NCBI GenBank assembly: GCA_003971905.1
Contig: RSEE01000027.1
Location: 496,001-560,000 of the forward strand
DNA: 64,000 bases
DNA from: Moniliella sp. 'wahieum'
Taxonomy: Eukaryota
Direction: 5' to 3'
Positions 1,262 to 60,901 of this stretch are shown here, piece by piece. Positions within the stretch are counted from its first letter, which is position 1, and each line of letters begins with the position of its first letter. The position numbers were made by a program, and so were the translations under genes. A model generated the notes under the pieces. It had not been told where the DNA came from, did not search any database, and saw only the letters and a program-made list of their open reading frames with translations.

Positions 1262-4200
1262 TCCTTAACAGTACCCAAACCTGCCGCTTAACCTGTGCTC
1301 TCCCTGTGTGATCCCTTTCGGGTGTCCCTTGCTCCTGGTCGCCCGTCCCTCTCCCTGTCCGCCTCTCGTGTTTCGCCTTCCACATCGTTGATCCATGATG
1401 GACCTTTGGTCTTCACGCCCCCTTCGTCACGTCCCTTCGTTTTCTCCATGGGGCAGGCACCTGCTCCCTCCTACCTAACCTCCCCCTCCCATGTACTACC
1501 ACCATGTCCCACCGTTTACCATTCCCCCTTTGCTTTGGTCACTTGATCCCGTCCCTCTTCCCGCTCGAACCGATCGCCCCCTGTTCTCTGAACATCCCAT
1601 GTCAAGAATATGTCCTATCTTACCTGGCGGCGCCCCGGTGTGCTATGATCCTTTTTGTTGTGCTGTAGCGCGATGTATGACCAGCTGGCCTGGCTACATT
1701 GCCTTGCACCCAGCACCACACGCGCACTTTTTTTTTACTTCCCATCGACTTGCGCTACCATGCTCTTTATCTTTCTCGGCAAGCTACAGTGGTGGCGGCA
1801 TTGATGGTCCGTCAGACCGACTGCCCAAGAAAATGGATGGGAAGAACCATATATGGAGGACAAGGCTCCAAGGGGGCAATACAGGTAGATGGAGGCGAAG
1901 AAGCTTGGACTTGGGCCGTAAGCCATGGGGTGTGTGGTCCGGGGTGTGGGTCCTGTGGGATGCGAGGCAATTCCCTAAAAAGGACCAAAGGGCCAAGAGA
2001 CAAGTGCGTTGTGGGTTTTTGGGGATGGGTGGGGGCAACCACAGTCGTCCCACGGCGTGGCGTAGGTACGGTACGAATGTGCTCGTGTGGAAGGTGGGCA
2101 GGGTGGTCTGCTCTACGCCTACCAACGGCCGACAGAGCCGGCAGAGCCGGAACGAGATGCCAAGGGGGGTACGTCGCCGGCGGCACGTCACGTCTTGGTC
2201 TGGGCCGGCGGTGGAGGGGAGGGTACGGGAGGGGGAGGGGGGAGGAAGGATTCGGGCCAGAGATGCAATCGTGTGCCTGGAAGGAGCATGGTGACGGAGG
2301 TGGAGGGGAGAAGGGGGGAAGGCGTGGACAGAAAGTGGCGGGGGCAGCACAGTTGGCTTTTTGTGGTACAGCAGAGGAAGAATGGAGACTTCGATCTCTG
2401 GTGGCTGGATTTGGTTGGCCCGTGGGGCGGCAATTAAAGTGTGAGGCTACGGACCTTGGTAGCTATAGAACCGTCCCAAGAACCTTGTTTCTCTTTGACT
2501 CTCTTCAAGGTTCAAGCTTCAGAAGGCCCTAATGAGCCTCTACTAGATGCCAATCTCACTTCAAGCTTCAAGCTTCAGCTTCACCAAGTCAATTGACTAG
2601 GGTCTAGTGACTAGCTACTAGCTACCGGCAGCCACCATTACTCTTCCCTTCAATGTCTTCACTGGCCTCAGGCCTCACTTTATCGCAACATCAAATTCAT
2701 TAACAGAAGCGTACCAGCTAATAGGATCATGTGGTCCGAGCGGGACGAAGCATAATGCGTAAGTATGGGATACGGAAGAGGCGGCTTCATGCAGGCCCTC
2801 AGTGCACTAAAGGGCCTCGGCCTCACATGCCTCACAGAACCAAAAATATTCGCTCTCTTTTTTTCTTGCAACAACAGGAGATATATACAACAGGAGACGG
2901 TACAACAGGAGGATGGGGTTCACTTGTTTTGAAATGGCAAACTAGAATGTGGCCCTGAGGCTCAGGGCCTCAGGTGAGGCCTGAGGTTGGAAGAACCAAA
3001 ACACGTCGAATACGAGAGTGGTGGGTGGTGGGGGCGCCCTCCTGTTGTTGCGTCGGTAGGGACTATCGATTACCGAGATACAGAGTACTGGTTACTGAGT
3101 ACTGAGTACAGTTCTGAGAATCTCAGACCGAAGGTATTTTAGCTTTAATTTAAAGTACAAGACCCTAGCGCACCCTAGGCTTTCCCCCTGTTCATTGATT
3201 AATGATTGGTATGTATTTTTGACCAGCTGTCGAGAGGAATCCAGTAGAATATCGAGGGCTGTCACGCGTCACGCGTCACACTGTTATGCGGCACATTATA
3301 GTGCGTAACGCGTAACGCGTAATGCATAATGGCAGGAACGGTCGGATGGATATGATCGATGATCGATGAGCTGGCGCAGGCTGATGGCGGATGGCGTCTA
3401 CTGTGGGGGCGAGAAGGTTTTTCCCCAGGTTTCCCCTGTCCCCTACTCGAAGTTTAAGCTTTAAGCTTTCTTGCAAAGGAGTTGGACGGATTCGAGGACC
3501 CTCTCTTCCGCCTATTTTTGGCTTTGAGAATGCATGAATGTGGCATCGTGTGACGCGTGACGCCCTGTGTATTTAAAGCTTTTCCTGTCTACTATGTCCG
3601 AACACCTGCTCTAGTATGTAATCGTCGTCGAATGTCGACCTCACGCGTCACGACCCACGACAGAGCCCTCGACGCAACGCACGACCTCCCGCGACCTACG
3701 ATAATCGAGAATCGATAAAACGATGATCGATGACCACAGCCGCCTTGGACTGAGGGCCCCATGCCTCAGACCGCCTCAGGACTGCCTCAACAATGACCTC
3801 GGTTTATCTTCCTCAATTGCCACCGGCTATCCTCTCTCGCCACCGTGCCACCCGCGTCTTCCACCTGTGTTTGCGTTCAACCATTTAACGTTTAACGTTT
3901 TCACTCTGAATCCGTCCATATATTGTGGGATGGTGGGCTGGATCCAACGTCCAACCCGTCCGTGCAATCAGGGTATCAGCTCATCGAGCTCAGCGCGCTC
4001 AGCTCAGATTTCCCACGTACAGAGACGCAGTAGAGCACTGATCCAATGAAGCTCAATATACGAAGAGGCTCAACGGTCTCTGGATATTGAATCGTAACCA
4101 TATCGTCCCCCCTCCCCCTTACACCTGCAGAGTCCCCCGGTTTCGAAGATTGATCAGATCATCATACCATTTGTGGGGGTGTATATAGTGGTGTGAGCGC

Positions 4201-4848
4201 ACGTGAGCGCTGAGCCTCACTGCCCATAGACTGATGGCGCTGATGGGCGTTGATTAATGATTGTGGACGAGCCATCAATCGAACATGGTGTTGGATTTTT
4301 GCTGATGCATGTAGGTACTCTTCGACTCGATACAATTGACTTCGCGCGTTATCGATTATCCATTACGGATTATCGATTAGCACGCTACGTAAGGCAGCCA
4401 TCTGCATCATACCAATCAAAAAGCAGGATGGAACAGAGATGATGATAATCGATCATTCGATCAATTCGGGTCAGATCGACGGGGGTGGTAGACACACACC
4501 CATAGGGATAAGATCTGAGAAAGCAACCAAAAAGGGGTGGGGTATGTAATAATGTTGTATACAGGACGGGGGAGGCGGGAGGCAGGGAGGTTCCGTAAAG
4601 GCTGGAACGACCAGCCGTCGAGAAACAAGAGCAGCCAAGAGGTTGCCATATGCGAGGTATCTAGGTGGAAAGAACGGCAGAGAAAAAAGCTCATCGTGCT
4701 TTGCGTCCCCATTAGAAGGAGGAAAAAGGAGAAGAAGGGGCGTCCGTGGCGGGCCGAAGTGGGAAAAAAGAGGGGGTGGATGAATATCCTGGTGTGGGGT
4801 TCTCGTGCAGCTAAAAGCAACCCGCATCGAATTTCACAGCGCTAGCGA

Positions 4849-5830
4849 TCAGAGGCGAAGCGGTGTACACCTTCGGGGGCAAGCTGATGGTGCCTTTGAC
4901 GGGGTGGGGATGAGGAAGGGGAGGCGATTCGAGACTGTTGGTTGGGGACGAAGCATCTTTTTATTTAGCCCGCCAGCTTTTGTTTCTTCCGATGCACTGA
5001 TCCAAAGCTTAACCTCGGTATCGACTCGACGGATGGACGAGGATGGAAGCGAGGCGATGAAGAGGAAATTGAAAATGAAGGCACGCGGAGGGAGGCCAGG
5101 CGGGGGGCAAGCTACGTCGTAGACTGATATGTTGAATGGCGACCCGGGCTTGCGATAACTCGACCCCCACAGATACCGAATCGACTTTGGATCGGCTTTT
5201 GAGGTGGGACACCCCGTTCGGTCAATACCCGAAGTGGTAAAGGCAGAGGAAAAAGGATTCACAGCCAGGCCAGAGGTGGAAGATTCGCCCACTGGATCGG
5301 AAGGGGAAGGGGGTTGATTTCGGCTTATCGGAACGGGCCAAGATGAGGCGCCTTTACGATGGCCGAAGCGACGGGGCGGGGGAGAAAGGGGAAACGTTCC
5401 ACGGTCCGGAGCAGCCCAGGGAACGGTACGATGAAGTACAAGGTCGCCCGATGGATTTTGGGGTGTGGCTTGTGGGAGGGGAGATCCAGGGGGGTTGGAA
5501 ACGTGCGGAGCGATTCGAATGCCCTTGGAGATCGAGACAGAGCCGCTGGTGGAACTGTGGGACGAAGGGGAAACATGCATCCTCCCTGGCCCGAGTTTGG
5601 TTTCATATGCGATTCCCGGCGTGGGGGGGTAGGAGCCATGCGTTGGAGACACTGGACCCACGCCGCGTTCGCCCTGCGCGGCGAGGCGACGTACGCCCCC
5701 CTCCGGAAGCCTGCACTGGGTTAACAGAGATGTAGGCACTGCACACCAACAGAAGGACGGTCAGCATTCCGAGACGCAGATCATGGTGGTGGGGGGGGGA
5801 GGGAATGACGCACTCAGTCCATTTGGTCAT
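4849..5830 (-). CDS. Hypothetical Ser/Pro-rich protein (intron near 5' end)
   Basis: CACCATG at 5830 (MTKWT), GTGCGT..GCTGAC..CAG intron, long ORF 4849-5739. No recognisable domain. Confidence 0.4.
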
Positions 5831-59930: not shown

Positions 59931-60525
59931 TCACATGAACTCAGCAGATTCTCGTACAAGGCGACGCACCTGGCATGATAGAGACAGGGTCAGACATGCA
60001 GCCAATCAGAAAGCAGACAGACGAATGAAGCGAGTACCTACACGCTTCTTGTATCCTGGCAGGTCCTCCCGCACCTGCTTGGCCGCATCAACGTTGGCAG
60101 GCGAGTCAGTATTGGGGTTGTCGGAGGAGAGGAGAGAGATGACAGAGATGAGAATGCTCTCAATCGAGTGGACTGGCATCCATCGTTCGCCGGCGTCTTC
60201 GTATCCATATTGGTCCGATCCAGGGGGATGGAGGATGGAGATGCAGACGGTGCCGTCTTCGTAAATGTTGGGGTGCCACATCTTGGTGATGAAGCGCATC
60301 TTCGGTGGTAGTAAAGGATACTCGGGAGGGAAGATAAGCTCAGCGTGGAGGAAGCCACCCTCGTAAAGGGTATCTTGGGGGCCGATGATCATAATGTCCC
60401 ACTCGTAGAGGTTGGAGTCGTCCTTGAGGCCGGCACTGAAGCCATCGACGGGGTGTTTCGTCAGCTCGGTGAGCTGGCGTTGAGGAGCAGCGCATTACCA
60501 GCAGAGGGGTAGCGGAGGCGCTCAT
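59931..60525 (-). CDS. Ubiquitin-conjugating enzyme E2, Ubc7/UBE2G1 family; intron 59970-60041
   Basis: PVDGFSAGL..NLYEW, YEGGF, WHPNIYEDGTVCISILHPPG and the acidic loop DQYGYEDAGERWMPVH. Confidence 0.95.
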
Positions 60526-60901
60526 CGTGATGGTAGTGGGGGTGGGGATGGTGGACGCCAAGCGCCACGAGCCAAATCGGACCACCCAGGCGTGCTCGAG
60601 CGGTCATCGAGATCGATGATTAACGATTGATGATGTGTGATGCATGATGTATGATGATCGGTGAGTACTGAGTGGCGGAGGCTGAGCCTAGGGTTACGCG
60701 GTGGTGTTGGTTGCGTTTTGTTTCCTGGTCCTTCACGGGGTCTCTGCGAGCAACCGGCAACCCCAGTCGACAGTCGGGTCCCATTTGAAATTGCAGACAG
60801 CAAGGCCAGCCAATTCCGCCCTCCTTTCCCTCCGCCCGATTGCCTTTTTTGGACGCATGCACGCACCCAGTCCGCACGCCCCCCTCCCTCGCCAACGCGC
60901 C

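Follow-up and report, generated by a model that had tools for sequence, protein, structure and literature searches.

A 64,000-nucleotide (nt) stretch of the genome of the fungus Moniliella sp. 'wahieum' (GenBank assembly GCA_003971905.1, contig RSEE01000027.1, positions 496,001 to 560,000; hereafter the window) carries short arrays in its intergenic DNA in which TNA triplets recur every 7 base pairs (bp), separated by self-complementary tetramers that we call cores. Judging from their sequence, these arrays are probably scars left by the excision of a cut-and-paste transposon of hairpin type, whose target duplication is 7 bp long and centred on TNA. The basic event behind them is a 7-nt insertion that turns TNAWX into TNAWX-X'W'-TNAWX (primes mark complementary bases); it is not the growth of a microsatellite.

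The arrays had been described in an earlier reading of the bare sequence (the original prediction), whose example coordinates are all right to within 1–2 nt. The excess that it proposed to test by counting is present: there are 67 TNA-N4-TNA sites whose N4 is palindromic, where 10.4 would be expected; spacers of 2, 3 and 6–9 are near expectation and a spacer of 5 shows a mild excess (18 against 8.1). It counted at least ten palindromic cores; 14 of the 16 possible 4-bp palindromes are used. The middle base N is identical in both TNAs at 55 of the 67 sites, and the pairs are therefore direct repeats rather than inverted or symmetric ones. Exact period-7 tandem duplications of at least 14 bp number 34, against a Markov expectation of about 3.5–4.4, and 23 of them are built from an interrupted-palindrome unit, xyzNz'y'x', for which 0.34–0.45 were expected (no more than 3 in any of the 100 simulations run at each of the orders 1, 3 and 5). 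T-N-A stands at the centre of the unit in 21 of these 23 (hand count), and palindromic units are found 1, 0 and 0 times at periods 6, 8 and 9. An excess of palindromic duplications at period 5 (29 against about 13.5) was set aside as CNG-dominated and compositional. Two palindromic 7-bp duplications have other centres, CTACTAG (A-N-T) at 2610–2625 and TGCAGCA (C-N-G) at 14774–14787; these may be scars of another family or products of chance.

That the arrays avoid coding sequence, another claim of the original prediction, also holds. A coding mask that marks 34% of the window, obtained from a rough self-trained codon-usage model with no annotation, contains 1 of the 23 arrays and 2 of the 67 sites, a near absence that fits the frameshifting effect of 7-bp insertions. 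The anatomy of the arrays, their statistics and their restriction to non-coding DNA are direct observations. There are about 54 loci in the 64 kilobases (kb), or about one scar per kb of intergenic DNA. A gene-poor stretch of about 5 kb (2500–7400), upstream of an APSES/KilA-N gene (7614–8039), contains 23 of 45 chains, and long regulatory regions seem to collect scars.

Among maximal period-7 runs, the modal length is 12 bp (18 of 47 runs) and not 14 bp. Such a run reads TNAWX-X'W'-TNAWX or the other-strand equivalent: a 5-bp direct repeat around a 2-nt filler that is the reverse complement of the 2 nt preceding it. A 14-bp tandem duplication of a palindromic heptamer was accordingly rejected as the basic event, the modal run being 12 bp and one-sided. 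Repeated 5-mers that start with T-N-A number 90 at a gap of 2, against 9–21 at gaps of 0, 1 and 3–8. When fillers are typed as palindromic (P) nucleotides, the class labelled L2 holds 64 and the other P-types 1–25, and the printed examples of the larger of these other classes (L1R1 and R2) satisfy L2 too. P-type 12-mers thus make up 64 of the 90 period-7 5-mer repeats in the TNA class, about 250-fold above a Markov expectation of 0.25; they make up 0–14% in each of the other 15 centre classes, so that the scar is confined to T-N-A. Array lengths follow 7n+5, and run lengths peak at 12 and 19.

Which core an array carries is dictated by its flanking dinucleotides, a dependence that, like the 7n+5 lengths, is absent from the original prediction. 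We formulated a flank rule with two alternatives: the dinucleotide just upstream of a chain is identical to the second half of the leftmost core, or the dinucleotide just downstream is identical to the first half of the rightmost one. Of 45 chains, 39 obey it, where chance would give 12% (p = 7e-30); a mirror-image control rule is obeyed by 3 of 34. The array at 3304–3331 reads CG TAA CGCG TAA CGCG TAA TGCA TAA TG, in which the upstream CG builds the left cores and the downstream TG the right core; the array at 29233–29253 reads TC TCA GATC TCA TCGA TCA TC, and its cores again fit both flanks. The chance of such a double match is 1/256 for either array. Paired CpG transitions, considered as the source of the CGCG-to-TGCA switch, were rejected as unnecessary, because the flank rule explains the switch and the flanks predict both cores exactly. 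When the window and fetched contigs are taken together, there are 9 mixed-core chains; each of them switches core at a single point, and 6 match the flanks on both sides.

The switching of cores in one register that the original prediction described is upheld by these two arrays; two more of its examples, 4349–4379 (TCCA, CGGA) and 60631–60654 (TGTG, TGTA), also include non-palindromic cores. Its argument that one slipping microsatellite cannot yield many cores in one register is right. Among the interpretations that it offered, the footprint of a templated fold-back repair comes close to the anatomy; a TNA-N4-TNA site for an abundant factor and a structural signal (cruciform or nucleosome exclusion) are unsupported. 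Selected factor sites, or such a signal, might be expected to be intergenic and to cluster, as the arrays do in a long region upstream of an APSES-type transcription-factor gene, and some cores make known site types such as ACGCGT. Against this, any of 14 cores is used, as chosen by the flank; the TNAs are direct rather than symmetric; the copies are exact rather than degenerate; and palindromic TNA-centred heptamers that stand alone are about as frequent as expected (193 of them, where a total of about 166 was expected). With cores copied from the flanks, TNAs in direct orientation and exact copies, the arrays are better read as repair scars, and selection for binding or structure is very improbable.

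The scars and related loci are listed below by window coordinates. Left-type and right-type 12-mers are symmetric around one TNA.

2512–2521: TCA-AGCT-TCA chain, flanks unmatched
2559–2577: TCA chain, cores AGCT twice, left flank CT matching, 7n+5 = 19
2666–2677: left-type 12-mer, TCA, core GGCC
2821–2836: full 7-bp duplication of CCTCACA with 2-nt P filler TG (+9 product)
2975–2986: right-type 12-mer, TGA, core GGCC
3094–3107: 14-mer, TGA, core GTAC, both flanks matching
3196–3207: right-type 12-mer, TGA, core TTAA
3262–3278: TCA chain, cores CGCG twice, flanks one base off, no exact match
3304–3331: mixed-core TAA chain (CGCG, CGCG, TGCA), inferred original heptamer CGTAATG
3353–3369: TGA chain, cores TCGA twice, flanks unmatched
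3454–3465: right-type 12-mer, TTA, core AGCT
3551–3562: right-type 12-mer, TGA, core CGCG
3641–3652: right-type 12-mer, TCA, core CGCG
3722–3733: left-type 12-mer, TGA, core TCGA
3885–3896: right-type 12-mer, TTA, core ACGT
3988–4003: full 7-bp duplication of GCTCAGC with 2-nt P filler GC (+9 product)
4204–4215: right-type 12-mer, TGA, core GCGC
4251–4262: right-type 12-mer, TGA, core TTAA
4349–4379: composite TTA array of a right-type 12-mer (4349–4360), non-palindromic TCCA and CGGA, and a left-type 12-mer (4368–4379)
6605–6616: right-type 12-mer, TGA, core GATC
6671–6689: TCA-GATC-TCA-GATC-TAA-GA, 7n+5 array, one N altered
6955–6969: 7-bp duplication of GCTCAAG with 1-nt P filler C (+8 product)
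6965–6983: TCA chain, cores AGCT twice, right flank AG matching, length 19
7110–7119: TGA-ACGT-TGA chain, flanks unmatched
7362–7375: 14-mer, TCA, core CGCG, both flanks matching
12332–12343: left-type 12-mer, TGA, core CATG
14689–14700: right-type 12-mer, TGA, core CATG
18295–18308: plain 7-bp duplication of non-palindromic, TCA-centred GTTCAAT
21932–21948: TGA chain, cores TCGA twice, flanks unmatched
22139–22152: 14-mer, TGA, core TGCA, both flanks matching
24766–24777: right-type 12-mer, TTA, core TCGA
25638–25658: plain 7-bp triplication of TAA-centred TGTAACG
25804–25815: right-type 12-mer, TGA, core TATA
28831–28844: 14-mer, TCA, core TTAA, both flanks matching
28871–28880: TCA-AGCT-TCA chain, flanks unmatched
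29233–29253: mixed-core TCA chain (GATC, then TCGA), inferred original heptamer TCTCATC
29292–29303: right-type 12-mer, TGA, core CATG
29828–29848: TGA chain, cores TCGA twice, both flanks matching, three heptamers
31884–31895: right-type 12-mer, TGA, core CTAG
32061–32072: right-type 12-mer, TTA, core CGCG
34115–34140: CT-TAA-AGCT-TCA-AGCT-TCA-AGCT-TCA, 26-nt 7n+5 array, one N altered
39170–39183: 14-mer, TCA, core ACGT, both flanks matching
39214–39269: TCA-centred cluster of CTTCAAC-AG-CTTCAAC (P2), CTTCAGC-G-CTTCAGC (P1) and CTTCAAC-GT-CTTCAAC (P2)
54335–54346: left-type 12-mer, TGA, core ATAT
54348–54359: left-type 12-mer, TCA, core CGCG
54371–54385: 7-bp duplication of GGTCATC with 1-nt P filler C (+8 product)
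54384–54395: right-type 12-mer, TCA, core CATG
57255–57268: 14-mer, TCA, core TGCA, both flanks matching
57452–57463: left-type 12-mer, TGA, core GCGC, within the rough coding mask
60631–60654: TGA array just upstream of the RNA polymerase III subunit 2 (RPC2) frame, with TGTG (plain WX+pq), TGCA (P-type, 60638–60649) and TGTA
60662–60673: right-type 12-mer, TGA, core GTAC

We propose that such scars could form in the following way, which is the simplest scheme to account for all the classes observed. An element inserting at pqTNAWX would create a 7-bp target-site duplication, the target being nnTNAnn. At excision both flanks would be sealed as hairpins, as in hAT, Transib, MULE and RAG, and a host nuclease opening these hairpins 2 nt off the tip would leave 4-nt palindromic 3' overhangs, WXX'W' and q'p'pq. 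End joining that retained one overhang and removed the other would give pqTNA-WXX'W'-TNAWX or its mirror, pqTNA-q'p'pq-TNAWX. The net change would be +7 bp, visible as a 12-bp period-7 run, with 2 P nucleotides gained and 2 nt lost on the opposite side; with one overhang kept from a 7-bp duplication, the apparent asymmetry of a 5-bp duplication is gone. The resulting scar would hold a perfect palindromic heptamer, and a second round of insertion and excision there would yield two identical self-complementary overhangs. These could join cleanly, giving exact 7-bp growth and lengths of 7n+5. Left- and right-resolved events at one original TNA would place two cores in one register. From the scars, which display a fixed 7-bp register with both copies kept and junction nucleotides that are the reverse complement of the flank, as excision footprints do, we infer a transposon, hairpins on the flanks and their opening 2 nt off the tip. 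When single-sided scars are oriented as TNAWX-X'W'-TNAWX, the middle N is G in 16, C in 8, T in 5 and A in 1 (hand count); this weak strand asymmetry (G+T 21 against C+A 9) might reflect the choice of retained overhang.

The excision model predicts minor products, and these are present. A 7-mer repeated around a 2-nt filler occurs at five loci with TNA-centred heptamers, four of which are P-type (2821, 3988, 39214 and 39254; chance 12.5% each), and a 7-mer repeated around a 1-nt filler occurs at three (6955, 39232 and 54371), all P-type. Plain 7-bp duplications of non-palindromic TNA-centred heptamers are found at 18295 and 25638. Because these products repeat a full 7-mer, the duplication is 7 bp rather than 5 bp. 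A Transib-like 5-bp duplication followed by 2 P nucleotides was rejected, since full 7-mer repeats with P fillers exist and since left and right types are symmetric around one TNA. Two further schemes were discarded: a PIF/Harbinger 3-bp TNA duplication, given that the filler copies 2 nt beyond the TNA and that 7-mer direct repeats occur, and a 4-bp palindromic duplication with an element-derived TNA, by analogy with Tc1/mariner, given that cores correlate with flanks and that there is no fixed element end.

A scan of metagenome contigs with one 17-base array returned at least 121 loci. Among the matches listed, run lengths peak at 19 and 20, 34 of 122 arrays have a run length of 5 modulo 7 (17 of 125 do in prokaryote genomes; Fisher p = 0.007), and a cruder flank rule is obeyed by 100 of 122, a figure inflated by long arrays. 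The flanking DNA of these listed matches holds 55 further isolated chains, in which a match of at least 2 nt is one-sided in 29 (about 6 expected by chance), present on both sides in 6 and on neither in 20. Some contigs with several scars carry fungal-type genes (a family-2 peroxidase, an AreA-type GATA domain), and others look bacterial or phage-like. One pair of orthologous contigs, 88–90% identical, differs by one 7-bp unit plus 1 nt; in a second pair the same array is found in both. The arrays are thus not private to this genome, a conclusion with moderate support from a mixed sample. They are extremely unlikely to be an assembly or base-calling artefact, as they recur in many independently assembled environmental contigs, avoid coding DNA and follow a flank-dependent rule that is beyond an error process.

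In Pseudomonas and other bacteria we found (AGCTTCA)n arrays of 3–12 units, which share the 7-bp unit and the palindromic character of the window arrays but are longer and have other boundaries. They are mostly bounded by AGCT at both ends (7n+4), have a modal length of 25–27 nt with no 7n+5 peak, and sometimes or often lie within larger inverted repeats. These bacterial heptamer arrays are a separate phenomenon on the same 7-bp unit. The prokaryote scan, planned as a chance control, contained real arrays and serves as a contrast only.

Arrays of this unit might also be palindromic heptamer microsatellites, in which hairpin-capable units arise by chance and expand by replication slippage. The long bacterial arrays and the orthologous contigs that stand one unit apart are in keeping with this, as is the frequency of chains with two or more cores (9 of 45). 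Had the approximately 1,765 non-coding TNA sites been hit independently, about one or two multi-core chains would be expected (hand arithmetic), so that scars must be preferred targets or must also slip. Yet the commonest state is the single 12-bp run, at about 250 times its Markov expectation; units are T-N-A only, with cores that copy the adjoining 2 nt of the flank in reverse complement; and the palindromic class is lacking at periods 6, 8 and 9. Run lengths that peak at 12 and 19, cores dictated by flanks, mixed cores in one register and P-type +8 and +9 products likewise speak against slippage, which we regard as improbable as the origin of the arrays.

Break-and-repair chemistry with no mobile element is a slightly better candidate, and still an unlikely one. 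Here the cut around TNA, staggered by 7 bp, would be made by a host nuclease (for instance a hairpin-forming transposase that has been domesticated) or in the course of abortive integration, and end joining would fix the duplication with P nucleotides. The very uniform scar spectrum favours this version, as does the failure to find a transposon or transposase in the window or the fetched loci; 64 kb of gene-dense DNA is, however, little in which to look for an element. One insertion followed by one excision normally produces a duplication together with flank hairpins, and we know of no nuclease that makes both. Families that make 7-bp duplications are known among basidiomycetes (PMC12730594).

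Several points weigh against a transposon origin. No transposase domain was found by Pfam in the 132 open frames scanned, which comprised 22 of at least 200 amino acids and 110 of the 116 others of at least 140 amino acids, shorter frames lying outside the scan. No terminal-inverted-repeat element with a TNA-centred 7-bp duplication was found in the window or at the 121 listed metagenome loci, the search output consisting of array self-matches and chance matches only, and the terminal motif of Puccinia hAT7 gave only chance matches in the window. The palindromes are even-centred (WX|X'W'), unlike those expected from the textbook cleavage geometry of hAT elements. About 80% of scars belong to a single product class, a uniformity beyond that of most footprint spectra in the literature, and the flank rule is broken by 6 of the 45 window chains. 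At about 54 loci in 64 kb, past activity must have been very heavy, in a stretch that retains no remains of transposons, and the metagenome support is diluted by prokaryotic (AGCTTCA)n contigs with other boundary rules. As a tentative and rather doubtful extension, an unrecognised or extinct nnTNAnn family with a 7-bp duplication, or a domesticated hairpin-forming nuclease, may have visited about 2–3% of intergenic TNA sites, with scars seeding self-reinforcing hot spots. The palindromic heptamer of a scar would be a better target than the original site, and promoters would come to carry arrays of 6-bp palindromes at such hot spots, among them known site types like ACGCGT. On this extended reading, the density of scars might also be used as a clock of cut-and-paste activity, genome-wide, in fungi with no visible transposons.

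Excision scars of the kind we propose have well-described relatives. hAT, Transib, MULE and RAG form hairpins in flanking DNA that host Artemis-like enzymes open, and end joining leaves footprints (PMC5499845). Footprints of Ac/Ds in yeasts are P-nucleotide palindromes with short deletions, two types account for 53 of 128 events in Candida, and the few predominant products reflect the host hairpin-opening enzyme (PMC5873905). The window scars resemble the footprints left by the maize hAT element Ac/Ds in plants, Saccharomyces cerevisiae and Candida albicans in keeping both target copies and in combining P inserts with opposite-end deletions (PMC5873905). They differ in their 7-bp TNA-centred duplication, their even 2 + 2 nt palindromes and the dominance of P2 with 2-nt loss, whereas Ac/Ds has an 8-bp duplication and a palindrome centred on the complement of the element-adjacent base (PMC5873905). 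We have not filed the scars under the hAT superfamily, because even-centred palindromes mismatch its textbook geometry; in addition, N is the same in neighbouring TNAs (55 of 67), and neither a transposase nor hAT7 termini were found in the window.

Even P palindromes are what a symmetric hairpin opened off-centre gives, and in this the scars resemble V(D)J coding joints and Transib or MULE donor repair (PMC5499845). The Transib duplication is 5 bp and that of MULE 8–9 bp, and V(D)J coding joints are far more heterogeneous than the window scars. Artemis opens hairpins 2 nt from the tip. Excision of P-element type leaves remnants of the element ends rather than flank-derived P nucleotides. Galileo, of the P superfamily in Drosophila, has a palindromic 7-bp duplication, GTAGTAC, whose centre is A-N-T and not T-N-A (PMC2775673). 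Among basidiomycete cut-and-paste elements, hAT7 of rust fungi and Kyakuja of Laccaria make 7-bp duplications (PMC12730594); they share with the window scars the host phylum and the duplication length. The '10-bp repeats' of Ustilago maydis, a basidiomycete whose genome is poor in transposons, are numerous, short and intergenic, and have been interpreted as footprints of past activity (PMC4081816, which cites Laurie 2012 and Schirawski 2010); at its minimum, the TNA-N4-TNA unit of the window is likewise 10 bp long. The original prediction knew of no description of its pattern. This was too strong, given that P-nucleotide footprints of hairpin transposons are textbook matter (PMC5873905, PMC5499845). 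A description of 7n+5, TNA-centred, flank-dictated arrays was not found in the literature searched; we make no claim that the pattern is unpublished. P-nucleotide excision footprints are already well known, and the scars described here probably belong to that kind.

The window is gene-dense nuclear DNA of a fungus with ordinary housekeeping genes. Scans of its open frames place in it genes for PCNA, RPC2, eIF5A, RPL5, RPL15, a ubiquitin-conjugating enzyme, mitochondrial carriers, an M14 peptidase and the APSES/KilA-N transcription factor. The host is a basidiomycete, as the top named matches to the RPC2 fragment are basidiomycetes, Ustilaginomycotina first, at 77–79% identity. The M14 peptidase gave only two hits, at 50–55% identity, and the lineage is therefore poorly sampled. 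Four transfer RNA genes of 81–99 nt, probably intron-bearing, lie at 12500–12595, 31719–31817, 47390–47470 and 48078–48163. A 171-bp near-perfect inverted repeat at 45025–45195 has 75-nt arms that are 92% complementary, a 21-nt spacer and ACGTGG at both sides, a direct repeat of 5–7 bp depending on the chosen arm start. It resembles a foldback element, one like a miniature inverted-repeat transposable element, or a hairpin RNA gene, and its flanking repeat is not TNA-centred. Two other tandem arrays were seen: (GGCCCCAT) x5.5 at 29107–29150, with 97% identity, which derives from overlapping CCATGG and GGCC palindromes and whose 8-bp period differs from the 7-bp pattern, and a C-rich decamer array, (CTCTCCCCAC) x7.7, at 30166–30245, with a higher-order period of 33 bp.

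The mini-repeats of the window probably record past transposon activity and not a regulatory code. If so, a gene-dense and apparently transposon-free region would preserve a dense, legible record of past cut-and-paste transposition, and the scars alone would yield the duplication length (7 bp), the target motif (nnTNAnn) and the host's hairpin-opening offset (2 nt). Such readings would open a route to detecting vanished DNA transposons and to comparing repair habits across fungi. It would also account for short palindromic repeats otherwise mistaken for regulatory motifs or microsatellites, and may bear on the '10-bp repeats' of Ustilago maydis. With each scar leaving a 6-bp palindrome in promoter regions, such events would supply raw material for new cis-regulatory sites.

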